NCBI RefSeq assembly: GCF_965641715.1
Contig: NZ_OZ282453.1
Length of the DNA stretch: 64,000 bases
Reading direction: 5' to 3' (one strand)
DNA from: Escherichia coli
GTDB lineage: Bacteria; Pseudomonadota; Gammaproteobacteria; Enterobacterales; Enterobacteriaceae
The notes beneath the pieces are model-generated. The model had not been told where the DNA came from. It did no database searches and was given only the letters and a program-made list of their open reading frames with translations. Numbering within the stretch: position 1 is the first letter of the stretch; each line of letters begins with the position of its first letter. Positions 4,232 to 20,645 of this stretch are shown here, in pieces. The position numbers and the translations under genes were made by a program.

Positions 4232-5120
4232 TGCGCCCACCTTCGCTGATGGTGAATGACTCACAGCGCGCCGCCTGTATGTCGCTGATGGCCAGATTCT
4301 GTGTGGGTTCGATTATCTCCACGCGTTGCACACCGTGCACATGCAGTGCGGCAGCAATGGCGGACAACGCCACGTCCTGACCGATAAGCCCCTGCTCAGC
4401 CAGCCACTTCCTGAACGACGATTCAGCCGCCGCCAGAATAGGTTCGGATTCCGGGCCGGGGTAAAAGTACAGTTTTGCATTCAGCCGCCATGTCACGATT
4501 CTGGCACTCTGTACGGTCAGGCGGTCGGCCACCGGGCGGGTATCCTCTGCATTCAGAACGGCGCGAACGGTATTAAGCAACGCCTCCGTTGCTGTGCCGT
4601 CGCCCTCAGTGGACAGGATGGAAACCGTCACGTTGGCCGGAGACGGGCTGATGGCCCGCGCATCGCGCACCAGACCGCTGGCGCTGCGTGCAAAATACTC
4701 GTATGCGCCTGACGGGCCAGCAACACTCAGACCATCATACGCCCGTTGCGCCCGCAGTCTCAGCGAGGTGTCGCTCTCCATCACCGCGTCGGTGGTATCC
4801 GTTGCCGGAGTGATAACCAGGCGCTTTGTGTTCATATTGCCCGCGAGGTTGTCCAGGTCTGTTCCGGTGCTGTGGCTCAACATGCAGGCGCGTGCGCCCT
4901 CGTTAACCCGCTGGCGTAACAGCATTTCACGAAACGACATGGTTTGAGCGATAACGTTCAGGGGTTCCGATTCCAGCTCCAGCGCGGCGGAGACGGCTTC
5001 ACGCTGTTCGGCGGGATAAGCCGCAATCATCATGGCCTTTGTGTCAGCCAGAATTGCTTCAAAGTCAGGCTCCGCGATGATGGCGGGTTCCGGTAACTGG
5101 GAAAGGTCAACGGCAGGCAT
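4224..5120 (-). CDS. Baseplate assembly protein gpJ-like
   Basis: 298 aa; position between W and I and size match P2 gpJ. Confidence 0.8.
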   Translation of the reverse strand: MPAVDLSQLPEPAIIAEPDFEAILADTKAMMIAAYPAEQREAVSAALELESEPLNVIAQTMSFREMLLRQRVNEGARACMLSHSTGTDLDNLAGNMNTKRLVITPATDTTDAVMESDTSLRLRAQRAYDGLSVAGPSGAYEYFARSASGLVRDARAISPSPANVTVSILSTEGDGTATEALLNTVRAVLNAEDTRPVADRLTVQSARIVTWRLNAKLYFYPGPESEPILAAAESSFRKWLAEQGLIGQDVALSAIAAALHVHGVQRVEIIEPTQNLAISDIQAARCESFTISEGGRNE

Positions 5121-5123
5121 GAT

Positions 5124-5474
5124 TTACTCCCTCAGCGTGATGGTTAATTCAACATTCTGCATGGTCTGCATGACAGTACCCGACAGCGTCACCCCGGCGC
5201 GGCCTCCTGCTTTCCAGACAACGTCGATGGCATCCAGGGCAATGCGGGGTTCCCATCGCGTCAGTGCAATCACGGCAGCACTCATGCATTGCAGACGCGT
5301 GGTGTTATTCATGGGTTCGTCAATTAAATCAGGCACAAGGCTGCCATATTCCCGTCGCATAACCCGGCTTGCCAGCGGGGTGATCAGGATGTCCCTGACT
5401 GACTGTTTCAGGTGCTCCATATCGTTCAGGTTTCCCGTCCCGTCCGGGTTCATTCCTGTGTAGCGGGTTGTCAC
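5124..5474 (-). CDS. Baseplate protein gpW-like (GPW/gp25 family)
   Basis: 116 aa; size and position between V and J. Confidence 0.8.
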   Translation of the reverse strand: MTTRYTGMNPDGTGNLNDMEHLKQSVRDILITPLASRVMRREYGSLVPDLIDEPMNNTTRLQCMSAAVIALTRWEPRIALDAIDVVWKAGGRAGVTLSGTVMQTMQNVELTITLRE

Positions 5475-6052
5475 TGCGGGCCTCCTGTCGAATCGCTGCC
5501 ACCTTTAACGCCACCGTGTTTATGCGTATGCACTGTGATGCCGTTTGAGGTGAAATCGCCGCCGCTGTGCGTGATATTGCCGCTCATCTTTCCCCCTTTT
5601 GTGACGTCAAGCGTCGCTGTTCTCAGAAGGTCTGTGCATTCCACGACAGGCGTGTCCAGTGTCACACTGACGGATGCCTGCAGGGTGGCCGTTTTCATGC
5701 CGCTGGCGCTCAGTGCGCCTGCGTCTGCGTCGTAGCGGAACACCGCGCCATCCGGCGCGCTGACCACGATTTCTTTCAGGCTTTTGCCTGGGGCCGGAAT
5801 GGCATCACTCCACAGGCTGCCAATTATCATGGCGGTTTCCGGGTTGCCGCCAATGCAGGCAATGACCACCTGTTCGCCTGGTGATGGCGGCAGCCACACA
5901 TTGAAGGCTCCCGCGCGCGTGGTGTTCCAGCGCAACCAGCCTGTTTCCAGTTCGCCGCTGCGAACGCGCACGCGCCAGGACTTCTCATCAACTTCAGAGA
6001 TGATCCCGGTGCGGATGATATTGCTCAGTAGCCGCATGAGTTCTGCGCTCAC
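5471..6052 (-). CDS. Baseplate spike protein gpV-like
   Basis: 193 aa; position upstream of W; gpV-like N-terminal fold pattern. Confidence 0.75.
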   Translation of the reverse strand: MSAELMRLLSNIIRTGIISEVDEKSWRVRVRSGELETGWLRWNTTRAGAFNVWLPPSPGEQVVIACIGGNPETAMIIGSLWSDAIPAPGKSLKEIVVSAPDGAVFRYDADAGALSASGMKTATLQASVSVTLDTPVVECTDLLRTATLDVTKGGKMSGNITHSGGDFTSNGITVHTHKHGGVKGGSDSTGGPQ

Positions 6053-6693
6053 CGTACAGCCTCCGCAATCCGGCCCAGCACCGTGTTATAAATCAGGCGC
6101 TCATCTGCCTGGCTGATACCCAGCAGCTCACGTACCGGGTAATCGGTGAAAATGCCCGGCGCAACCTGATCGCGCTCACCGAACTGATGAACGCGTGCAA
6201 TACGTGCGGCCACGCCGCTGTAACCCACCGTCACACCGGAAGCATCTGCACGGGCTTTCAGGTAGCGGGCGGTGCGCAGTTTTACGAACATGGGGACGCG
6301 CCTGGTGCTGTCCTGGTTGATGCGCCGGGTGCGTATTTCCAGAAAGCGGTCGATGTCATCCCGGTAAAACGTGCGGATGCTGTTTTTATCCTCATCCCAC
6401 CCGGTGATGGTTCGCCCGTATTTCCCCGTGTCGTGATGCCAGTTTTTCAGCGTGCGTGCTTCGTTATTCCAGATAAAGCGAATGCGCTCCTGTATCCGGG
6501 TTACGCGGCGTCTGCGTGGTGTCCATGCGGTCCCGTCCGGCGCTTTCTGTGACCGGATGCGCGCCTGCTGGGCGCGGCGTAAATCCTGTGCCAGCTTTCT
6601 GGCGATGTTATTGATGGCCTGCTGATTCAGGCTGTCGCGGATGGCCTCAAAGGTTTCATCCACGCGGGTGAATGCCTTATCCATCGCTTTCAC
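6049..6693 (-). CDS. Phage virion morphogenesis / tail completion protein (gpS-like); start uncertain
   Basis: 214-aa track ORF in the R-S position; overlaps the R-like ORF by 17 nt, so the true start may be internal. Confidence 0.55.
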   Translation of the reverse strand: MKAMDKAFTRVDETFEAIRDSLNQQAINNIARKLAQDLRRAQQARIRSQKAPDGTAWTPRRRRVTRIQERIRFIWNNEARTLKNWHHDTGKYGRTITGWDEDKNSIRTFYRDDIDRFLEIRTRRINQDSTRRVPMFVKLRTARYLKARADASGVTVGYSGVAARIARVHQFGERDQVAPGIFTDYPVRELLGISQADERLIYNTVLGRIAEAVR

Positions 6694-8317: not shown

Positions 8318-8805
8318 AACTCCGCAAAGATTCGCGGTCGTCCCAGAATGTCAGAGATGGCCCAGCTCACATCGCGCCACAAATCCGATGTCTGTATATC
8401 CAGTGCGTCCGCCCGGCGGTCGCCCTTATCCGTTGTGTCCGCATCGCGGTAACGCTCCAGAATCAGGGCGCGTGTGGCGGTATAAACGGCATTGCGCCAG
8501 TGCCAGAGATTGACGCTTTCTCCGTTAATTACGGGTGCCGGAACATCGGCCAGCGTCTGGTGGCCAGCCGCCTGCTGTTCCTGCTGCCACGCTTCCAGCT
8601 CGCGGGTAACGTGTGCCACGGCCCCGGTGGCGGTATGCAGCAGGCGGGAGGTGGTCACACGGCCCGGCAGTCGTATCGCCAGACGCAGCTCACGCAGCAC
8701 AATATCCGGCCAGAATGCGCCCGCTGAAATACGGGTATCACCATCATCGGTATCGGTGATGTCGTCCTCTGCGGGGCCGGGGTTGGTTCTGGCAACCATA
8801 CTCAT
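8311..8805 (-). CDS. Head completion protein gpL-like; start moved to ATG 8805
   Basis: Track ORF 8311-8814 starts at GTG; the ATG at 8805 is preceded by AGGAG; position after M. Confidence 0.7.
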   Translation of the reverse strand: MSMVARTNPGPAEDDITDTDDGDTRISAGAFWPDIVLRELRLAIRLPGRVTTSRLLHTATGAVAHVTRELEAWQQEQQAAGHQTLADVPAPVINGESVNLWHWRNAVYTATRALILERYRDADTTDKGDRRADALDIQTSDLWRDVSWAISDILGRPRIFAELC

Positions 8806-8906: not shown

Positions 8907-9707
8907 TTAAACGCGCTTCGCCTTCTGCGTCGCGGTGGTTTTTCGTGTTGCAGGCTTCCGCGTTGTCTTTTTACTTTTGCTGCTTTCGTCCTGCGCCTGC
9001 TGTGCGCTGGCGTCATCTGGGGCGGCTGCGGAATCGGCTTTTTTCAGGGCGCGGGAAAGGGTTGCAATCTCGCGTTTCACACCTGCGTTCGGGTTCAGGT
9101 GCATCGCTTCGCGCAGCAGCTTCAGTGACAGGGCCATGCTGTCCGCATCGCTCAGGCCACGGCGGGCAAAGGCGCACGCCTTGCATAATTTGGCGCGTAC
9201 TTCGTCCGGCATATCCTGGTCGGTGACAATCTCCCGGAGGGTGTCCAGTGGTTCGATAAAGGCGGACAAATCCGCGTCGGCATCCGTCCCGGCCTGCGTC
9301 AGTACCGGGTTGCAGATTTCTTCGGTCAGCACTGTGGCAGCAGTACGGCCAAAGTTATCCGGCATGATGAGGTTGTGACGGACCACATACGCACCAATAC
9401 GCAATGCCAGCGGAAGATCGCCACAGTCAATCGCCCACACCATCAGCGTGGCAATCACCTCATCCTGCTGCCCGCCGTCAGCCTCCAGCGTTCCTTCAAT
9501 CCAGCCAGAAAAGTCCGGTAACAACTCTTTTTTGATGGCGGCTTTGGCGCTTCTGGCCTGTACGCCCTTAAGTCGGGCCTGTGCCAGACGCAGACGATAC
9601 AGCACCTCTTCATGCGCGGTACGTGCGGCGTGATCCACGCCTTCATTCGCCCGGCCTGCGCGCTGCGCCATCACGTTCTGCCAGTGTTGCTGTGCAGGGG
9701 TAATCAT
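8907..9707 (-). CDS. Terminase small/endonuclease subunit gpM-like
   Basis: 266 aa; position between N and L as in P2. Confidence 0.75.
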   Translation of the reverse strand: MITPAQQHWQNVMAQRAGRANEGVDHAARTAHEEVLYRLRLAQARLKGVQARSAKAAIKKELLPDFSGWIEGTLEADGGQQDEVIATLMVWAIDCGDLPLALRIGAYVVRHNLIMPDNFGRTAATVLTEEICNPVLTQAGTDADADLSAFIEPLDTLREIVTDQDMPDEVRAKLCKACAFARRGLSDADSMALSLKLLREAMHLNPNAGVKREIATLSRALKKADSAAAPDDASAQQAQDESSKSKKTTRKPATRKTTATQKAKRV

Positions 9708-11819: not shown

Positions 11820-13571
11820 ATGATTCAGGACGCTTTTGTGCGCCAGCGTGCGCGACAACTTTACTGGCAGGGTTATCCGCCCGCTGAAATATCACGTCTG
11901 ATGGGAATAAACCCGAACACGATTTATGCGTGGAAAAAACGCGACCAGTGGGATGAAACGCCACCCGTGCAGCGTGTCACGCAGTCCATCGATGCGCGCC
12001 TCATCCAGCTTACTGAAAAACAGAATAAAACAGGCGGTGACTTTAAGGAAATAGACCTGCTGACCCGGCAGCTTAAAAAACTGCATGATGGCCAGCCGGA
12101 TGCGACGGCCACAGGAAAGAAAGGCCGGGCGAAAAAGCTTAAAAATCATTTCACGCCGGAACAGATTGCCGCACTGCGGGAAAAAATCATCAGCAGGCTG
12201 GAGTGGCATCAGCGGGGCTGGTTTGACTCCCTGACCCTTTGCAGGGAAGCCGGGATACGTAACAGGATGATCCTGAAATCCCGACAGATTGGGGCGACCT
12301 GGTATTTTGCACAGGAAGCACTGCTGATGGCGCTGCGTGACGATGTGGCGCAACCTTACCAGCGTAACCAGATTTTTTTGTCTGCGTCGCGTCGTCAGGC
12401 GTTCCAGTTTAAAAGCATTATTCAGAAGGCTGCATCTGAAGTTGATGTGGAGCTGAAAGGGGGCGATAAAATCATCCTCTCCAACGGCGCAGAGCTGCAT
12501 TTTCTCGGCACTTCTGCTGCGACGGCACAGTCCTACACAGGCAATTTTTATTTTGATGAATTTTTCTGGGTCAGTCGCTTTGCTGAACTGCGCAAGGTGG
12601 CTGGCGCTATGGCAACCCTCAGCGGGCTGCGACGCACCTACTTCTCCACGCCATCAACCGAAACGCACGAGGCATACGTCTACTGGAACGGCGACCGCTG
12701 GAACGAGAAAAAGGCCGCGCATAAACGCCAGCGTTTTTCTGTGGACTGGAAAACGCTGCATAACGGGCTTATCTGCCCCGACCGGACGTGGCGGCAAATT
12801 GTCACGCTGGAAGATGTGGTTAATCACGGCTGGAAACACACCGATATTGATGAAATTCGTGATGAAAACACCGAAGACGAGTTCCGCAATCTCTATATGT
12901 GTGAGTTTGTCCGCGAAGGGGAATCGGCATTTAACCTGAATATCCTGATTGGCTGCGGTGTTGACGGATACGACGACTGGAAAGACTGGAAACCTTTTGC
13001 TCCCCGCCCGATGGGGAATCGTCCGGTATGGATTGGGTATGACGCAAACGGCAGCAGTGGAAACGGCGACAGTGGCGCGGTGTCCGTGGTGGTTCCTCCG
13101 GCTGTTCCTGGTGGCCGTTTTCGAACGGTGGAGACGCGACGCGTTCAGGGGCTGGAGTTTGAAGAACAGGCCAGAGTCATTGAAGAGTTCACGTGTCGCT
13201 ACAACGTGGAACACATCGGCATTGATGTGACGGGCGGGAACGGGGAGGCTGTTTATCAGATAGTGAAACGGTTTTTCCCTGCCGCTATTCCGTACACCTT
13301 CACGCTGTCATCAAAACGGTCGCTGGTACTGAAAATGCTGCAAATAATGCGTGCCGGGCGGTGGGAATACGATCGCGCCGAACGCGAGCTGGTCGCGGCC
13401 TTTAACGCCGTGCGTAAGGTGAAAACACCGGGCGGCTTTATCACTTACGAAACGGACCGCGCGAGGGGGATCAGCCACGGCGACCTTGCGTGGGCAACCA
13501 TGCTTGCTGTCATTAACGAACCAATTGGCGGCGAAGGAGAAAACGAGCGTTTCACGGTTATGGAGTTCTGA
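11820..13571 (+). CDS. Terminase large (ATPase) subunit gpP-like
   Basis: 583 aa; divergent from O as in P2; ATG preceded by GGGGGAG; terminase ATPase region. Confidence 0.9.
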   Translation: MIQDAFVRQRARQLYWQGYPPAEISRLMGINPNTIYAWKKRDQWDETPPVQRVTQSIDARLIQLTEKQNKTGGDFKEIDLLTRQLKKLHDGQPDATATGKKGRAKKLKNHFTPEQIAALREKIISRLEWHQRGWFDSLTLCREAGIRNRMILKSRQIGATWYFAQEALLMALRDDVAQPYQRNQIFLSASRRQAFQFKSIIQKAASEVDVELKGGDKIILSNGAELHFLGTSAATAQSYTGNFYFDEFFWVSRFAELRKVAGAMATLSGLRRTYFSTPSTETHEAYVYWNGDRWNEKKAAHKRQRFSVDWKTLHNGLICPDRTWRQIVTLEDVVNHGWKHTDIDEIRDENTEDEFRNLYMCEFVREGESAFNLNILIGCGVDGYDDWKDWKPFAPRPMGNRPVWIGYDANGSSGNGDSGAVSVVVPPAVPGGRFRTVETRRVQGLEFEEQARVIEEFTCRYNVEHIGIDVTGGNGEAVYQIVKRFFPAAIPYTFTLSSKRSLVLKMLQIMRAGRWEYDRAERELVAAFNAVRKVKTPGGFITYETDRARGISHGDLAWATMLAVINEPIGGEGENERFTVMEF

Positions 13572-14617
13572 TGAGCAGAAAAAATAAAAAAGTGCGCATG
13601 AGTTCACGCATTGATCTCGCTGATGCGCTCAGGAAAGAATCGTCGCTCAGTGCATTCACATTTGATGGTCCTTACCGCCTGACCGGGCATGACCTGCTGG
13701 ACAATATGTACTGTGCTGATAACGGGCGGTGGTATGAAACCCCGGTGGACTGGTACGGTCTGGCAAGAGCCGCCCGGCAAACGTCCTGGCATCAGTCTGC
13801 GCTTTACTTTAAGCGCAATGTATTGCTCGGTTGCTACATCCCGCACCCGCTGCTTTCCCGGCAGGATTTCTCGGCGCTGGCGCTGGACTGGTTTGTGTTC
13901 GGTAACGCATTCCTTGAGCTTCGGAGCAATATGCTCGGCGAACCACTTAAATTACGGCACGCACTGGCGAAATACATGCGACGCGGAAGCGATCTTGAAT
14001 CATGGTGGTATGTGCAGGATGGCAAGGACGCGTTTCAGTTTCGCCCTGGCAAAGTGTGCCACCTGATGAATCCGGACATTAACCAGGAAATTTACGGCAT
14101 GCCGGAATATCTTGGCGCATTACTCTCGGCCAGCCTGTCTCATTCGGCGGACATGTTCAGAAAACTGTACTACGACAATGGATCCCACGCCGGGTGCATC
14201 ATCTACATCGGTGCAGCGCAGGTAAACCGCGAAAGCATGGACTCCCTGAAGGAAACGCTACAGGGTGCGCGTGGTGGTGGTGCATTTAAAAACGTGCTCA
14301 TTCACGCGCCCAACGGGGGCAAAGAAGGTGTGCAAATTTTGCCGTTCCAGCAGATCACCGCAAAGGATGAGTTCATGAATGTTAAGGCGGCATCCCGTGA
14401 TGATGTGCTGGCTGCGCACCGCGTTCCGCCGCAACTGATGGGGGCGATGCCGGGCGAAAAAAGTGCGTTTGGTGATGTGGAGAAGGCAGCGCGGGTTTAC
14501 GCAATTAACGAGCTGATGCCCGTCATGGAGGCCATGAAGCATATCAATGACTGGCTTGGCGAAGAGGTGATCCGCTTTAACCCTTACGCACTGCTGGACA
14601 CCCAGCCCACATCCTGA
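13571..14617 (+). CDS. Portal protein gpQ-like
   Basis: 348 aa; start overlaps the P stop (ATGA); P2 portal-like. Confidence 0.9.
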   Translation: MSRKNKKVRMSSRIDLADALRKESSLSAFTFDGPYRLTGHDLLDNMYCADNGRWYETPVDWYGLARAARQTSWHQSALYFKRNVLLGCYIPHPLLSRQDFSALALDWFVFGNAFLELRSNMLGEPLKLRHALAKYMRRGSDLESWWYVQDGKDAFQFRPGKVCHLMNPDINQEIYGMPEYLGALLSASLSHSADMFRKLYYDNGSHAGCIIYIGAAQVNRESMDSLKETLQGARGGGAFKNVLIHAPNGGKEGVQILPFQQITAKDEFMNVKAASRDDVLAAHRVPPQLMGAMPGEKSAFGDVEKAARVYAINELMPVMEAMKHINDWLGEEVIRFNPYALLDTQPTS

Positions 14618-15141
14618 CGCGCTTCGCTTGTCTGCTGCTTCGCCGGGGCATAAAAAATTTATGCCCCGACTCTCCAGCTCCTGTATCAATCAGATAATTT
14701 CACGACGTCTTCCAGCTTATCGCCATCATCGACGGTCAGGCTCTTACGCAATCCCACCGCGTTGACTGCATGTTCTTGCCGCCTCAGTGCGATTTTGACG
14801 GCCTTATCTGTCACCCCATCAAATCAAAAGCCCTCACGCCTTTTTCACGCTCAGTGTGAGAAATACAGCCATTCTGTTGTGTCGCTGCGACATCGTTCAG
14901 GGAATGCTATTTACCCCCTGAAACGCGGGCTGTTCCCCCGTCACCTGCGCGCAGAAAAAACGCGTTTTTTTGTGCACGCACGGATCCTTGACGGATCCAG
15001 TCGCCACGCGGGCCGGAAGGGTAAAAAGTTGTTCAAAAAAATTGTGCAAATTTGTGCACTATTGTGCGGTGTATAAAATGAAAATATGGCGGTGTTATTA
15101 CTGCCCAACAAGCCGTTATACTTACGTTATGGGCGTGCATA
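14618..15141. other. Non-coding interval where cos and the packaging site are expected by P2 synteny; cos itself not identified
   Basis: Lies between portal stop and phd start; contains inverted repeat GGGGCATAAA/TTTATGCCCC (14645-14667), palindromes CTGCGCGCAG and A6CGCGT6 (14945-14970), two GGATCC sites 11 bp apart and TTGTGC repeats. Confidence 0.3.
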
Positions 15142-15498
15142 ATGGAAATGAATATGAAAACTGTAACTGATGATGAATTTCGTGAGAACCTGAGTGAAAT
15201 TCTGGATTACCTTTCTTCCGGTGGCAGTGTCGTTATCACGGCGCAGGGAGGGAAGGATGTTGTTCTTGCTGGTTCTGATCTTAGTCCTGAAATACGGGCT
15301 GTCCTTGGCAAAACCAAAAAACTGCGGGATCAAATAAACAAAATGAAGCAACCACTCTTAATAAATGCAGTGAGAGATCTGGAAAAACGTCATCCAGCTC
15401 TTGTCGCACAGAGAAAAAAAGGATTGTCTTTTGAAGATGCAATGAAGCGTACAAGAGAAAAACATGCGGATATCATTAAAAAGCTTGAGGATAACTGA
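15142..15498 (+). CDS. phd: Phd/YefM-family antitoxin (118 aa, C-terminally extended)
   Basis: N-terminus ...KTVTDDEFRENLSEILDYLSSGGSVVITAQGGKDVVLAGSD has the Phd/YefM pattern; stop overlaps the doc start (ATGA at 15498). Confidence 0.7.
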   Translation: MEMNMKTVTDDEFRENLSEILDYLSSGGSVVITAQGGKDVVLAGSDLSPEIRAVLGKTKKLRDQINKMKQPLLINAVRDLEKRHPALVAQRKKGLSFEDAMKRTREKHADIIKKLEDN

Positions 15499-15905
15499 TG
15501 GACATAGTGTTTTTGTCAAAAGAACAAGTAGAACGTATCCATGCTGAAACTTTACCCCAGAGCGGAAATGCCAATGACGGGCTACTTGAAGGTGCTTTAA
15601 ATCGCGTCAGGACACTACACTACTATGAAGGGGTTGATGATATTCATGCTCTGGCTGCTATGTATTTGATTGGTATAGCCAAGGCTCATGCCTTTCATGA
15701 TGGGAATAAACGCACAGCTTTTCAGGCTGCATCAATATTTTTAATGATGAACTCTTCCGAACTTTCAAACTCCCTGCTGCTGGTTAAATTAACGGTGTTT
15801 TCAGCAATGGGGATAGCTACCCTTGAGGAAGTTACCTTTGCTTTGAAATTGCTGTCTGATTATGGCAATGAATTAATCAGCGACTACGAAGAAGATTATA
15901 TTTAA
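15498..15905 (+). CDS. doc: Doc-family toxin (Fic fold)
   Basis: 135 aa; Fic/Doc signature HAFHDGNKRTA present; coupled to the upstream antitoxin. Confidence 0.85.
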   Translation: MDIVFLSKEQVERIHAETLPQSGNANDGLLEGALNRVRTLHYYEGVDDIHALAAMYLIGIAKAHAFHDGNKRTAFQAASIFLMMNSSELSNSLLLVKLTVFSAMGIATLEEVTFALKLLSDYGNELISDYEEDYI

Positions 15906-16071
15906 TGCTGGCATACTCTGTCGTGTTAAGACAACAGCCTTTGCGGAGACAGGGCAGGGTGCCAGACTTGCCCGCAGCGCGTCTGACATGAGCAGTTATT
16001 CATCTTTTTTATTGTTTTTCTCCATGCAGGGCGACAGTGCGCCCCGATAAAATTAAAAGCCGTCAAATTCG

Positions 16072-16407
16072 TCATTCATGCGTTTTTTCTTCATGGTCTG
16101 TCACTTCTCTCCTGATAACTTCATTGCACAAATCAACGCACTCATTGCAGATGTAAACAGACGGTCCGGCAATCACCTTTGTGACTTCGTACTGGGATTT
16201 ATTGCAGAAGCTGCAATAAATCGTCTCCTCACCTGAAGTCCATGTTTTGCTGGTTTCGCCAGACATCAGTTGTTTGAGGTCTTTTTCACGACGAAGAACT
16301 ATCTGGCCACATTCAGCTATTTTTTGGATGTTGACATTTTCTTCTTTCGCCAGCGCTTCCATCCGCTCAATCAGTCGCTGCGCTTTTTCTCTGTCAATGC
16401 GTTGCAT
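16072..16407 (-). CDS. Small protein with C-terminal ClpX-type C4 zinc-binding domain
   Basis: 111 aa; C-terminus [36 protein letters not shown] matches the ClpX N-domain (LYCSFCGKSQHEV...YICDECVDLCNDII); N-terminal half predicted helical/charged. Confidence 0.7.
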
Positions 16408-16470
16408 TGTGTCCCCCTTGTTTATGTTCCCGGGTTAAAGTCATCAGGGCGGATGCGCCCTGATGTTGTG

Positions 16471-16782
16471 TTATTCGGGAAATAACGCCCGGATATTTCC
16501 GGCCATCTGACTGGTTATCTGTGCGGTTGATACTGGCTGTGACGCGGGGCGTTCTGTCCTGGTTTGTGTCACTGATAACGCTTCATCATCAGCCCATGCA
16601 GCCAGTCGGTAAGCCTCTGCCGGATTCATTTTCAGAAGTGCCAGCCCGGCCAGAAAAGCCACGCGTTGGCCGCTTTTGCGCGCTTCTGGTGTAAGGCTGT
16701 CCAGCCAGGCGCATGCTTCACCTTCGTTCTTGACGGCGGCGGGCTTCAGATAGAAACTTATCCGTCTGGTTGGAGTCGTCAT
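16471..16782 (-). CDS. parR: ParR-like DNA-binding partition adaptor; start at ATG 16782
   Basis: 103 aa from MTTPTRRISFYLKPAAV...; aligns with what I recall of R1 ParR (RRTIAFKLNPDV...LDS...AGLAL); ATG lies 5 nt after the parM stop, with AGGAG upstream. Confidence 0.55.
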   Translation of the reverse strand: MTTPTRRISFYLKPAAVKNEGEACAWLDSLTPEARKSGQRVAFLAGLALLKMNPAEAYRLAAWADDEALSVTQTRTERPASQPVSTAQITSQMAGNIRALFPE

Positions 16783-16786
16783 TGGT

Positions 16787-17746
16787 TTACTCCTTGTCCA
16801 TTGCGTACAGCCCATTAACCAGAGCAAACTGTGGCACCCCGTCCGCGATGAAAGTCGCATTAACTCCGCAGGCTTCGCGGATAGCGGGTGCCACAATCTC
16901 CGCCCCGCCACCGACAACCATCACCCGCCCGTAACCCGAAAAAACCGCCAGCGCGCGGATCACGCGTTGTTTCAGTGTTTCTTCCTTTTCACGAATAACC
17001 GCCATCAGGCTGGCGTAATGCGCGTCATTGTGGATGTGCTGGCGCAACCAGGCTTCATCATGGCGATGTTCGATAATGGTATTGGCGATGTGGTGACTGA
17101 TACGCATACCGTTAGTGGCCATCACCGACAGTACGGCATCGGCCATCAGGGAAACGCCTACGTGTGGATCGCAAAACACCTGGCTGATACCTGCCAGTTG
17201 CCCCTGAACCTTTGCCACATCCAGTGTGGTTCCGCCCAAATCCACAATCAGCAGGGATTCAAGCGGACTCATGTCAGCCAGTGCTTTAAAGCCAGCCGGA
17301 ATGGATTCAGGCATAACCCGTACGTTACGGATAGTGAATGTTTCGCCGTTCTGGTACTCCACCGGGCGCATAACGTTCGCTTTTTTGCGGCTGATGTTGG
17401 CCATGTCCGGCTGTGCGTTTGTGTCGAAATACTCGCTCAATGGCAGGGTGACAACCACATCCACCTCCTGTGGCGTGATGCCTGATTTGACCAGCGCGTG
17501 ATGAATGGCAATGACATTCACATCGCTGTACTGGTATTGCGTGTCGGTCGTCTGGACAAAGCGATCGCTGACCGGATCAAAACCATAGCGCACGCCATCA
17601 AGCATGTAGTTCGCGGGCTGCGAGCCACCGAACGGCGCAGACCATTCCGACTTGAAGCTGTTCGGGCTGATGGCGTTGCGGCGTTCGCCGTTCTCAGTCC
17701 ATGCCAGCTTGATGTTGGTGGAGCCGTCGTCGATACAAATTTTCAT
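16787..17746 (-). CDS. parM: ParM/StbA actin-like partition ATPase
   Basis: 319 aa; MKICIDDGSTNIKL..., ISPNSF, YSDVNV, KKAN, FTI.NV.VMPESIPAG, DLGGTTLD and VMV.GGGAE blocks parallel plasmid R1 ParM. Confidence 0.9.
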   Translation of the reverse strand: MKICIDDGSTNIKLAWTENGERRNAISPNSFKSEWSAPFGGSQPANYMLDGVRYGFDPVSDRFVQTTDTQYQYSDVNVIAIHHALVKSGITPQEVDVVVTLPLSEYFDTNAQPDMANISRKKANVMRPVEYQNGETFTIRNVRVMPESIPAGFKALADMSPLESLLIVDLGGTTLDVAKVQGQLAGISQVFCDPHVGVSLMADAVLSVMATNGMRISHHIANTIIEHRHDEAWLRQHIHNDAHYASLMAVIREKEETLKQRVIRALAVFSGYGRVMVVGGGAEIVAPAIREACGVNATFIADGVPQFALVNGLYAMDKE

Positions 17747-17783: not shown

Positions 17784-17890
17784 GGATTTTTAAATCCCGC
17801 TTTTGCCTGTTTTGTGCGCGCTTCATATATCGCGGCACGTTTTTTGCTCATTTATGGGATTTGTGAATCCCGTTTCTGTCTGTTTTTTGT
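17784..17890. repeat. Two imperfect 33-bp direct repeats, each with a GGGATT/AATCCC hairpin and T-run, upstream of parM and overlapping the 3' end of gene A
   Basis: GGATTTTTAAATCCCGCTTTTGCCTGTTTTGTG (17784-17816) and GGATTTGTGAATCCCGTTTCTGTCTGTTTTTTGT (17857-17890). Confidence 0.5.
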
Positions 17891-20645
17891 TTCCACTGGT
17901 CAGGCCACCCCGCAGCAGGTCTGCTTTGCGGCTGGCGCGTTCAGTGGTTTCACTGATTCTCTGTGCGTGCTCTGCGTCGCGGATGGCGCGCAGCATGTCA
18001 GAAAGCACGGTAACGGGTGTTTTCATGGTGTTCTGGTCCTGCTGAAGTGTGGATGCCAGGCGTGCGGCGGCTTCAGGGTCTGATGCCCCCAGCTGTGCCA
18101 GATAGCTGGCGACCGGGTTATGGCGGATCTCCGTGCTGCTTACGCCATGATTACGGCTCAGGCGCTGCCAGAGCTGCGTGATTCGGCTGTCCGGGCGGGT
18201 ATCCGGTTTGCGTACAATTTCAAATCCCTGCGGTGCAATGATGCTGCCGTCAACGTACAGACTGCCGCCCCGTAACAGGTGCTGCATCTGTTGTTCACCG
18301 ATATGCAGGCCGAGAGATTCAGCAGACTCCCGCCATTCTTTAGCGAGTAATTCGTGGTTATCAGGCAAAGGCCGTGGCTGTTTGCGGCTCTGTGTCCAGC
18401 TCTGCATTTCATCACTGCTGTTTTTTGCCTGTTTGTCACGAAGCGAACGCATCAGCGCCCGGCGTTCGTGCCGTTTCAGTGAGCGCATCCATTCGTTCAC
18501 GTCAACGCCGTCAGGAAGCTGCGGCCACGGTGCTGGCCGTTCTTTCGACTGTTCTGTCCCGCTGTTGCCTGTTTCCTGTACACGGGGACAGTTATTGCCA
18601 CGAGTCCAAGGGGCGGCAGGGCCGCCCTGAAGGTCAAAACCATTTTCGCGGGCGCTGTCTTCCGTTTCCGGTTTACGTCTTACCAGTTTCCAGTTATCCG
18701 GATGCGTGCACACACGGGAGGATTCCCCGATGAGTGGTGACCAGATCCCGTAAATCTGTACGCTCTGTTCGCCGTAATCATTCAGCTCATCTGCGAGGTC
18801 GTAGGCGGTGCGAATCAGGTAGTCTTTGCGTGGAACAAGTACGCCGCCCTGTTTTTCAATGTAGGTGGCAAAACACCCGGCATCGGCGGCAGCGAGTACC
18901 GCATCCATTGCGTCATCTTTCAGTCGTTGCGGGCCTTCCGGGTTGCGTGCCATCTGGCTGGCAAGGCGGCGCAGTTCACGCCACACCTGACGGGAGGGGA
19001 TGCCAAAGAACTGGAACTGGCGGACCCGATGAAGGCGCGCCCAGCCGATGGCGCGCTCCACACTCTCGGCCATTGATTTTCCGGTTTCGTGGTCAACGCG
19101 TGGCTTGCCCGTTTTCGGGTCGATGCCATCCACGGCGCGGCTGTCCAGGTTCTTTCCGATGTAGGTCGCGATATAGCTGGTTGGTGTGCCTTTTGAGCCG
19201 TCGACATACTCCGCCTTAAAGCGCGGAGTAATATCATTGCCCAGCTCGTGGCGGTCTTCCTGAATGGCAATATCGCGGGTGATGGCCACGATGCTGTCGA
19301 TTTCTTCCGGATGAGCAAAGACCATCATATGCCAGTGCACGGTGCCGTCATGGTGAGGCTCCACCGTGCGGATGCCATACCAGCGAAGACCGTCGCGGTT
19401 CAGTTTTTTGCGGACCGCCGCAAAAAACGTGTTAACCAGGTAATCGCTGGAGTCGCGCATGGTGGCCCCGTTCCATTTGGGATTCGGATGACCGTTCTCT
19501 GTTGTGGCGTGGTATTTTGACGGGCAGGTGACAGTCAGAAACACCGCTTTGTCGCCACGGGCTTCGGCCAGAAGTTCCAGCCCCTTCATGGTGGCCATCA
19601 TTTCTGCCTTACGGTGAACCGGGTTACTTACTCCCGCGTAATACACCGTCTCGAGATCAATCGTGAACCCGTCTTCATTTTCCAGCATGAAACTTTTCAG
19701 GAAATCGCGTGTTTTCTCGCGCTGTGCGCGAAACTCGCTTAACGCGTCCTGGCTCAGATAGGGCGATGTTTTTCTGGAAACCAGACAGGCGGCGCGGAGT
19801 TGTTCTTCTCTCCACTCGCAACGTAACAGCCACAGTTTGCGTTTCCACCATTCTGCACAGGTCAGGCGAAGGATTGCGCCCGGCAGCAGCTCCGTGTCCG
19901 GTTCGTTCCTCTGGTCTTTGTCTGTTGTCAGTGCGTCATAATGTGGAGGCATGGCGTGCAGGTGTAACGCCATGCGGGCCAGCATCTGATACGCCTTCAG
20001 CGTTACATCCATGGTCAGTTCGCCATCGGTCGCGCCAAAGCCATCGCAGAGTTTTTCGAAGGTGCTGCTGAACATCGCCGCCGTCATGGTGGCCAGTGTC
20101 TGTATCTGGTGTTTGTTGAGCTGCGGCAGGTAAAGCAAATCGTCCAGGCGTTCGCGTCCGGCAAGGGAGCGATAACCCTGTGTCAGCCAGCGGTGATCGG
20201 TGCGCTCCAGACGTTCGAATATTTTGCGCAGGTTTCCGCGCGCGTAGCGTTCAGCCTGCCAGCTCTTTTTGCCTTTCTGACGATCGGCTTCCTGTTTTTT
20301 GCGCAGGAAGGAGAGGTGGCGAATAAGCGGATCGCGCAGATAGGACGGCAGCAGGCGCAGCGAGGCCATGGCTTCATCCACCGCGCCGCGTGCCTGTTTT
20401 CTGGCATCTCCTGCCAGTGTGATGGTTTTGTCCTGTTTTTCCTGTGCGTCCAGGCTTTTATTAATCAGGTTGCCCAGCGGCGTTGCGGAGAACGCCGCAT
20501 CAGCCATTTCCTGGCGGTGCTCGTTCTCTACCCGGTAGGCATCCAGCCAGGAGGAAAGCGCGGATTCAGGAGCGGGGATCCCCGTTCCTTCACGCCCCAC
20601 TGCGTGGCGCGGTTGTTGCCAGTCCCTGATGTACTCTGCCGTCAT
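17823..20645 (-). CDS. Replication initiation protein (P2 gpA-like rolling-circle endonuclease)
   Basis: 940 aa; P2 A position; HUH-like motif ...HHDGTVHWHMMVF...; translationally coupled to the upstream 121-aa ORF. Confidence 0.65.
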   Translation of the reverse strand: MTAEYIRDWQQPRHAVGREGTGIPAPESALSSWLDAYRVENEHRQEMADAAFSATPLGNLINKSLDAQEKQDKTITLAGDARKQARGAVDEAMASLRLLPSYLRDPLIRHLSFLRKKQEADRQKGKKSWQAERYARGNLRKIFERLERTDHRWLTQGYRSLAGRERLDDLLYLPQLNKHQIQTLATMTAAMFSSTFEKLCDGFGATDGELTMDVTLKAYQMLARMALHLHAMPPHYDALTTDKDQRNEPDTELLPGAILRLTCAEWWKRKLWLLRCEWREEQLRAACLVSRKTSPYLSQDALSEFRAQREKTRDFLKSFMLENEDGFTIDLETVYYAGVSNPVHRKAEMMATMKGLELLAEARGDKAVFLTVTCPSKYHATTENGHPNPKWNGATMRDSSDYLVNTFFAAVRKKLNRDGLRWYGIRTVEPHHDGTVHWHMMVFAHPEEIDSIVAITRDIAIQEDRHELGNDITPRFKAEYVDGSKGTPTSYIATYIGKNLDSRAVDGIDPKTGKPRVDHETGKSMAESVERAIGWARLHRVRQFQFFGIPSRQVWRELRRLASQMARNPEGPQRLKDDAMDAVLAAADAGCFATYIEKQGGVLVPRKDYLIRTAYDLADELNDYGEQSVQIYGIWSPLIGESSRVCTHPDNWKLVRRKPETEDSARENGFDLQGGPAAPWTRGNNCPRVQETGNSGTEQSKERPAPWPQLPDGVDVNEWMRSLKRHERRALMRSLRDKQAKNSSDEMQSWTQSRKQPRPLPDNHELLAKEWRESAESLGLHIGEQQMQHLLRGGSLYVDGSIIAPQGFEIVRKPDTRPDSRITQLWQRLSRNHGVSSTEIRHNPVASYLAQLGASDPEAAARLASTLQQDQNTMKTPVTVLSDMLRAIRDAEHAQRISETTERASRKADLLRGGLTSGNKKQTETGFTNPINEQKTCRDI

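Follow-up and report, generated by a model that had tools for sequence, protein, structure and literature searches.

What are the palindromes and evenly spaced repeats that lie between positions 14945 and 15090 of a 64,000-nucleotide stretch of Escherichia coli DNA (contig NZ_OZ282453.1, hereafter the window), shortly upstream of a phd-doc toxin–antitoxin pair? A preliminary description of this interval offered two answers: an operator and promoter array for phd-doc autoregulation, or part of the packaging region expected beside the portal gene. The second answer is the one that fits. Very probably an integrated P88-like prophage has its cos DNA-packaging site here, of which the interval would be the right-hand portion, away from the portal. 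Such a site is a known kind of element, a P2-family cos hitherto unannotated in the P88-type lineage, and not a new kind of system. Four observations carry the assignment: the position of the interval, its conservation, the homology of its architecture with the cos sites of phages P2, 186 and P4, and the mobility of the module on its own, on an island and on a plasmid. These are presented in turn.

The surroundings of the interval are those of a P88-like prophage (Xuanwuvirus, P2-family, Peduoviridae). Nucleotide identity to the P88 group is 92–96% by BLAST, and the match ends at about window 15067–15080. The interval lies inside a 524-bp gap 3′ of the portal gene. The layout, with the large terminase and portal genes immediately upstream and ParM/ParR genes and a gpA replicase downstream, is that of P88, phiSM and P88_4B11. 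The annotations of P2 and 186 put cos just beyond the 3′ end of the portal gene, in the same order as in the window. Like the cos of the P2 family, the conserved module described below (14927–15067) sits between the portal 3′ end and the variable region by the replication gene.

Read directly, the letters are much as first described. The palindrome CTGCGCGCAG occupies 14945–14954 and is followed by a perfect 16-bp palindrome, AAAAAACGCGTTTTTT (A6CGCGT6), at 14955–14970. Two GGATCC sites, spaced by 11 bp, are at 14982–14987 and 14993–14998, one base earlier than the preliminary description taken literally would have them. TTGTGC starts at 15042, 15052 and 15062, a spacing of exactly 10 bp, and TATAAA is at 15072–15077. 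To these are added a fourth TTGTGCA at 14970–14976, a 35-bp imperfect palindrome at 14946–14980 that is larger than either palindrome listed before, and a block, 14925–14953, that is the most conserved of all and begins just left of the interval. The phased arrangement TTGTGC-N4-TTGTGC-N4-TTGTGC is found once in the window, where 0.02 would be expected even if two mismatches are tolerated. TTGTGCA as a single heptamer shows no enrichment, with 14 occurrences in the window and 14.9 expected. Since the heptamer alone is at chance level and the triple far above it, the signal is the phased cluster and not the word.

A conservation profile of 105 unique family sequences from IMG/VR delimits the element. 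This is a stretch of about 141 bp, window 14927–15067, which is conserved as a non-coding module; conservation drops to background at 15067/15068 (a slash marks the junction between adjoining positions). Within and beside the module, three blocks are near-invariant: 14925–14953, the T-run plus GTGCA at 14965–14976, and an A-run with the three repeats at 15034–15067. In distant relatives, namely Novemvirus phiT5282H, the phage-plasmid pENTAS02 and a Salmonella IncFII plasmid, only the equivalent of window ~14915–15071 is retained, at about 74% identity, and the flanks have diverged. Klebsiella P2-like phages have the same architecture, diverged further. The distal A-run and its three repeats are almost invariant in Xuanwuvirus, in Novemvirus, in the plasmid and in a satellite-like island described below; the palindrome's A-run and the two GGATCC sites are limited to the Xuanwuvirus group. 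When 5426 complete E. coli genomes were searched with window 14905–15067, the module was found in 1105 of them, in 1253 places, with at most four per genome. RefSeq placed no feature on the module in 12 sampled matches of this search; in the satellite-like island a hypothetical coding sequence spans it.

Homology with known cos sites was seen with a nhmmer profile built from 98 unique family cores and searched against the circularised genomes of P2, 186 and P4 (about 76 kb, both strands). The best match is the P4 cos junction (E=1.5e-4, model positions 20–158), and the second is the 186 cos junction (E=0.017). The profile aligns the 19-mer GGGCTGTTCCCCCGTCACC (14927–14945), which is inside the most conserved block of the family, to the cohesive ends of P4 and 186. 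This 19-mer is the predicted cohesive end. On the bottom (minus) strand it reads 5′-GGTGACGGGGGAACAGCCC, which is identical at 13 of 19 positions to the cohesive end of P2, 5′-GGCGAGGCGGGGAAAGCAC; that is, the window has a 19-nt GC-rich sequence related to that of P2, the relation being one of sequence similarity only. The published cos sequences of phiRSA1 (GGTGAGGCGGGGTCCAAC) (PMC5694545) and AP3 (GGTGGGGCGGGG...) (PMC5247547) start like the reverse complement of the window's 19-mer. From homology with P2, 186 and P4 we infer both terminase binding and the exact nick positions, which would be about 14926/14927 in the top strand and 14945/14946 in the bottom strand.

The resemblance extends beyond the 19-mer. 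P2 and P4 have in common a 55-bp core (Ziermann & Calendar 1990, as cited in PMC3931495, PMC5694545 and PMC9594776), the counterpart of which in the window is 14921–14976. Its left flank is short and GC-rich; then come the 19-mer, a segment of 19 nt, the T-run from +20 and the first TGCA, all in register with P2, 186 and P4. Aligned outward from the portal, with slashes delimiting the 19-mer, P2 reads GCGCGCA / GTGCTTTCCCCGCCTCGCC / CGCCCGCTTCACGGGGCGG-TTTTAATGCAC and the window reads ACGCG / GGGCTGTTCCCCCGTCACC / TGCGCGCAGAAAAAACGCG-TTTTTTTGTGCAC. The T-run begins at +20 in both.

The TGCA-type repeats beyond the core keep their places as well. Counted from the end of the 19-mer, they are at +26, +98, +108 and +120 in P2, at +26, +98, +108 and +117/121 in 186, and at +26, +98, +108 and +121 in P4. 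The window, Novemvirus and the plasmid have them at +28, +100, +110 and +120, and one Klebsiella phage at +26, +35, +98, +108 and +118. In each of P2, 186 and P4, all four window offsets are matched within 2 nt. None of 20000 shuffles does so, and random placement of an equal number of sites matches all offsets in 2–4 of 20000 trials. This common register suggests that a functional P2-family cos may reach about 120 bp past the cohesive end and include three phased TGCA repeats.

The module is also found where phage packaging genes are not. Plasmid pSA20083530.2 of Salmonella (NZ_CP030205.1) is an IncFII plasmid of 33,467 bp, typed as non-mobilizable, with the module at record positions 4624–4763. 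The equivalent of window 14927–15067 is its sole prophage part, and a tblastn search of the plasmid with ten phage proteins gave no match. Its size is within the range of P2-like genomes, and it may be a natural cosmid transducible by a P2-like helper. An open reading frame about 530 bp from the module (5293–6306) appears IS91-like, by eye only.

At three IMG/VR module loci the portal gene is missing upstream. One of these (IMGVR_UViG_2609460346_000011) is a complete contig of 12,006 bp that carries the module on its minus strand at about 8500–8660. Among its products are two integrases, a protein that is repressor-like (Icd-like), a primase of P4-alpha-like type, a 236-residue unknown protein and MazEF, with the MazF toxin, as well as a P2-family major capsid protein with an N-terminal extension; it has neither a terminase nor a portal gene. 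A copy of this island in a complete genome (NZ_CP069093.1, 1502–1514 kb) sits at a tRNA-Arg gene (argW) by yfdC and also has a gene for an Ogr/Delta-like zinc-finger protein. The 12-kb island is present in 57 of the 5426 complete E. coli genomes. Of the module's parts it has the 19-mer and TGCGCGC, the T-run with GTGCAC, and all three repeats, but not A6CGCGT6 or the GGATCC pair. The island looks like a P4-type satellite with its own capsid protein. P4 itself shares only cos with its helper P2 (PMC9122126). By analogy with P4, the occurrence of the module alone on a satellite-like island is the strongest indirect evidence that it is a packaging signal. Together, island and plasmid suggest that satellites and a plasmid have captured the TTGTGCA-type signal.

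Several points weigh against assigning the interval to cos. The profile match in P2 is weak (E=7.9), yet it falls at cos. Smith-Waterman alignments of the window with the P2 and 186 cos junctions, in both orientations, score inside the shuffle null; the similarity to the P2, 186 and P4 sites is seen only with a profile. Hairpin energies are unremarkable. The 14946–14980 palindrome has z = −1.15, and across lineages the DNA folding z-scores of the +1 to +35 segment run from −1.15 to +1.24, so that a hairpin or cruciform there, which had been considered, was left without energetic support; even so, TGCGC[G/A]C and GTGC[A/G]C have been retained as an inverted pair. The ends of IMG/VR contigs are scattered at window equivalents 14894, 14916, 14962, ~14990 and 15054, with none at either predicted nick, and experimentally mapped virion ends for the P88-like lineage were not found. 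The binding of terminase to the distal repeats is purely inferred. Finally, the linear record of phage P88_4B11 (LR595891) breaks at window 15023/15024, 78 bp to the right of the predicted cut.

The last point bears on the alternative that survives best, namely that the cos region is correctly placed but the staggered cut is in the G-rich block at about 15005–15023 (CACGCGGGCCGGAAGGGTA), the 19-mer at 14927–14945 then being a binding site rather than the cohesive end. The two ends of LR595891 abut exactly at 15023/15024, and three sister P2-type records of the same study start exactly at the P2 cos. In addition, the motif GG(C)GGAAAGGGCA, which is kept in Novemvirus and in the plasmid, is loosely like an inverted P2 cohesive end. 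Against this, the study in question trimmed contig-end repeats and set nucleotide 1 by reference genomes, and the ends were not mapped (PMC6969025). The block is less conserved than 14925–14953, a common variant reading GGAAGTACAAAAAG; its orientation relative to the portal is opposite to that of P2; and it is only with the left 19-mer that the profile alignment and the TGCA offsets fall into register. A sister record, LR595870.1 (Escherichia virus P2_2H1), is instructive about such ends. Its first letters are those of the Nextera adapter GTCGGCAGCGTCAGATGTGTATAAGAGACAG, after which the P2 cohesive end is entered at its 10th base; its last are CTGTCTCTTATACACATCTGAC. Compared with the true P2 ends, one end of the record lies 9 nt inside and the other about 33 nt short. 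The extra letters are contaminating adapter, and the ends of the record are near, not at, the physical ends. Given the study's methods and these adapter remnants, the P88_4B11 record ends were set aside as an experimental cos; the break is evidence of a nearby cos and not a mapped end. A cut within the G-rich block is thus considered unlikely.

The operator array is a far more doubtful proposition. It would have Phd or the Phd-Doc complex bind the TTGTGC/GTGCAC repeats and the palindromes and so repress a TATAAA promoter. The repeats do lie about 90 bp upstream of the Phd-like/Doc pair. TAAAAT (15074–15079) follows the TTGTGC at 15052–15057 by 16 nt, and the two could form a weak promoter; moreover, the old promoter of P2 has a −35 element that overlaps the third of the TGCA repeats. 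The distribution of the sites argues otherwise. Repeats and palindromes are kept in 1105 genomes and phd-doc cargo in only 19 of the same 5426. Among 167 loci, 57 distinct junction classes of cargo directly follow the third repeat, and many of them open with a convergent terminator hairpin. P2, 186, P4, the plasmid and the satellite-like island all have the repeats and all do without phd-doc. Conservation stops at 15067, before the TATAAA box. Operator sites of Phd/Doc would be co-inherited with the operon and directly upstream of it; the sites seen here stand beside entirely different cargo in relatives. Because the module is in 1105 genomes, phd-doc is in 19 and the cargo classes number 57, the repeats belong to the phage backbone and not to phd-doc, and the autoregulation proposed in the preliminary description is not upheld. 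The phd-doc pair is cargo in the cos-proximal hotspot, a concept taken from PMC9122126, and is not part of the cos element. Over the 1,008-bp cargo segment that was searched (window 15068–16075), E. coli C7 (NZ_CP010240) has 100% identity.

As for transcription, a sigma-70 promoter scan of 14550–15250 returned no consensus promoter. TATAAA/TAAAAT (15072–15079), with the second repeat as −35 element, could still be a weak phd-doc promoter. The idea that the repeats serve generally as −35 elements for cargo promoters was tried and rejected, 3 of the 57 junction classes fitting against 0–5 in the null. The register of the possible phd-doc promoter would thus be a local accident. CRP, FNR and Ogr-type TGT-N12-ACA patterns were checked by eye, with no fit. 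The phd-doc operator of phage P1, with palindromic Phd sites overlapping the promoter, resembles the window in having short GTGCAC palindromes upstream of a phd-doc-like pair. It differs in that the window repeats are unlinked to phd-doc in evolution and are outside the gene-bearing cargo segment.

Least probable of all is that the repeats are parC-like centromere iterons for the downstream ParM/ParR or replication-origin iterons: short, helically phased repeats are typical of ParR sites and ParR-like and ParM genes are at 16471–17746, but some 1.4 kb of sequence, variable cargo included, separates the repeats from parR, the same offsets recur in P2, 186, P4, Novemvirus and pENTAS02, none of which has ParMR adjacent, parM is downstream in only 55 of the 83 family loci with enough flanking sequence, so that the iterons are not associated with a parMR operon as ParR/parC sites are, and the P2 origin is inside gene A.

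Taking the interval as the right-hand part of the cos site, we suggest the following arrangement. Terminase would recognise the ~141-bp module 14927–15067, and staggered nicks would flank GGGCTGTTCCCCCGTCACC, generating 19-nt 5′ cohesive ends. The right part of the counterpart of the 55-bp core would then consist of CTGCGCGCAG, the T-run and the first TTGTGCA, and at one end of the virion chromosome the elements first described in the interval would make up the final ~120 bp. The three 10-bp-phased TTGTGC(A) repeats, ~100–120 bp from the cut, would present the same face of the helix and most likely dock terminase, either via the small subunit or via the N-terminal helix-turn-helix domain of the large subunit. 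They form a conserved distal element of the proposed cos. A docking role is proposed because the repeats stand in the same positions in P2 and in P88-like phages while their word has shifted, ATGCA becoming TTGTGCA, along with terminase divergence (37–44% identity to those of P2). The repeats may act in the initiation of packaging, in the manner of cosB, or in its termination, in the manner of cosQ. The A6CGCGT6 palindrome and the GGATCC pair would be a lineage-specific decoration of spacer segments, and the TATAAA box, with phd-doc, would have come as cargo inserted in the hotspot by cos.

Both proposed readers are encoded in the window. The gene for the small terminase subunit, a homolog of P2 gpM, is at 8907–9707 on the minus strand (Pfam Phage_term_smal, E=5.5e-37; 37% identity to gpM), and its product is a candidate trans-acting reader of the cos signal. 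The gene for the large subunit, a gpP homolog, is at 11820–13571 on the plus strand (Pfam Terminase_5, Terminase_6N and Terminase_6C; 44% identity to gpP). The large subunit has an N-terminal helix-turn-helix domain (Terminase_5) at residues 6–63 and is a second candidate reader of the repeats.

A broader proposal, which we put forward tentatively and hold to be somewhat less than an even chance, is that the TTGTGCA-type module defines a separate packaging-specificity class in the P2 family. The pattern of one proximal plus three phased distal TGCA repeats, with ATGCA as the word in P2, 186 and P4 and TTGTGCA in the window, would be the terminase docking determinant of all Peduoviridae and would choose which hitchhikers are packaged. 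If so, P88-like and Novemvirus-like helpers would have a clientele of their own, which would include the 12-kb capsid-encoding island and, as a natural cosmid, at least one non-mobilizable IncFII plasmid.

The individual parts of the module are as follows. CTGCGCGCAG (14945–14954) adjoins the predicted right-hand nick, and its TGCGCGC is kept in all lineages examined. The imperfect palindrome TGCGCGCAGAAAAAA-CGCGT-TTTTTTGTGCACGCA (14946–14980) contains A6CGCGT6 and occupies the place of a GC-rich hairpin in P2, 186 and P4; its A-run is Xuanwuvirus-specific, and its T-run plus GTGCA is universal. The proximal TTGTGCA (14970–14976, plus strand) puts its TGCA at +28 from the 19-mer, compared with +26 in P2, 186 and P4. 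Next comes a direct repeat of 8 bp, ACGGATCC, on the plus strand, whose two copies (14980–14987 and 14991–14998; 11-bp spacing) span 14980–14998 and include two Dam GATC sites. The repeat is lineage-specific: Novemvirus, the satellite-like island, the plasmid and the Klebsiella relatives have not kept it. Two GATC sites 11 bp apart in the cos spacer (window 14982–14998) are found in the Xuanwuvirus lineage only; Novemvirus has one and the plasmid none. Such paired Dam sites may recall the Dam-regulated cleavage of the P1 pac site. A G-rich block followed by an A-run (GGGCCGGAAGGGTAAAAAG) extends from 15008 to 15028 and is moderately conserved; it is here that the P88_4B11 record ends. The distal A-run and the three TTGTGC(A) repeats at 10-bp phasing (15034–15067, plus strand) place TGCA at +100, +110 and +120. 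Variable cargo starts at 15068 and runs, on the plus strand, to 15141; it contains TATAAA/TAAAAT.

By eye, no convincing consensus for integration host factor (IHF) was found in this region. A candidate IHF site, TTCAAAAAAATTG, one spacer base off WATCAANNNNTTR by eye, was dropped, the spacing being different in the Klebsiella relatives. In one IMG/VR locus (L191), an insertion stands at the equivalent of window 14947/14948, directly after ...CCCCCGTCACCTG and inside the cos core of a P88-like prophage. By eye, its end (GGTAATGACTCCAACTTATTGATAG...) is that of IS1. This IS1-like insertion presumably inactivates packaging.

To the left of the module, the portal gene (P2 gpQ homolog; Pfam Phage_portal; 47% identity to gpQ) occupies 13571–14617 on the plus strand. 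A hairpin formed by GGGGCATAAA and TTTATGCCCC, read directly from the letters at 14645–14667, lies 3′ of the portal stop codon and is probably, by analogy, the counterpart of the tQ terminator of P2 and the tW terminator of 186; a terminator scan gave no call there. The portal 3′ end and this hairpin (window 14612–14685) also have 93–98% identity to short stretches in two other E. coli records, CP061270.1 and CP061233.1, which adjoin an Ogr/Delta-like zinc-finger gene and may be satellite or prophage remnants.

To the right, the gene for the Phd-like antitoxin is at 15142–15498 on the plus strand, with a Pfam PhdYeFM score of 29.2 bits, just under the 29.8 cut-off. The protein has 118 residues; the PhdYeFM match is confined to residues 5–42, and the long C-terminal part is without a family match. 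The Doc/Fic toxin gene (Pfam Fic/DOC) follows at 15498–15905, also on the plus strand. Downstream of phd-doc are a gene for a ClpX-type zinc-finger protein and the ParR-like and ParM genes, and then the gpA-type replication endonuclease at 17823–20645 on the minus strand, all assigned by Pfam and P2 comparisons. Here an integrated P2-like prophage has, between its cargo hotspot and gpA (window 16072–17746), a partition pair of ParM/ParR-like type together with a ClpX-type zinc-finger protein. The related elements pENTAS02 and NZ_CP148288 are recorded as plasmids, and these records suggest a phage-plasmid lifestyle in part of the family.

A literature search found no description of cos for P88-like phages, and the P88 and phiSM papers are silent on it. 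Roughly one complete E. coli genome in five carries the element without an annotation, and the location of the element sets the correct genome ends for P88-like phages. It also shows where the cos-proximal cargo and defence hotspot has its left boundary, here at 15067/15068. In practice, the module offers a 141-bp handle for cosmids or transducing particles of the P88-like helper class. Capture of the signal bears on the phage-mediated transfer of non-mobilizable plasmids. Three by-products of the analysis merit more attention than the cos itself: the conserved arrangement of one plus three repeats, the satellite-like island with its own capsid gene, and the plasmid on which cos stands alone.

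How, then, does the module compare with the packaging sites that are already known? P2-type phages package from monomeric circles. With the cos sites of P2, 186 and P4 the module shares a location just past the portal 3′ end and by a variable hotspot; 19-nt 5′ cohesive ends are known in those three. The parts recur in the same order: a C-rich 19-mer with a GCGC-rich flank, a 19-nt segment, the T-run at +20, a TGCA at +26/+28 and three more at about +98/100, +108/110 and +120. Also shared is the presence of the module on elements without packaging genes, as with the cos that P4 and P2 have in common. There are differences too. The predicted cohesive end departs from that of P2 in 6 of its 19 positions, an A6-CGCG-T7 palindrome stands where P2, 186 and P4 have their GC-rich hairpin, and the repeat word is TTGTGCA instead of (A/C)ATGCA. 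The terminase proteins are only 37–44% identical to those of P2, and nucleotide similarity needs a profile to be seen. In phage λ, cos is composed of cosQ, cosN and cosB, the R sites of which are bound by the small terminase subunit gpNu1, and the overhang is 12 nt. The window module has no sequence relation to λ cos, and its predicted overhang is 19 nt rather than 12 nt. In both, a nicking site, in the window a predicted one, has to one side of it a set of short repeats that could position terminase. Three phased repeats, 100–120 bp from the predicted cut and conserved from P2 to P88-like phages, would by this analogy form an architecture compatible with that of a λ-type cosB.

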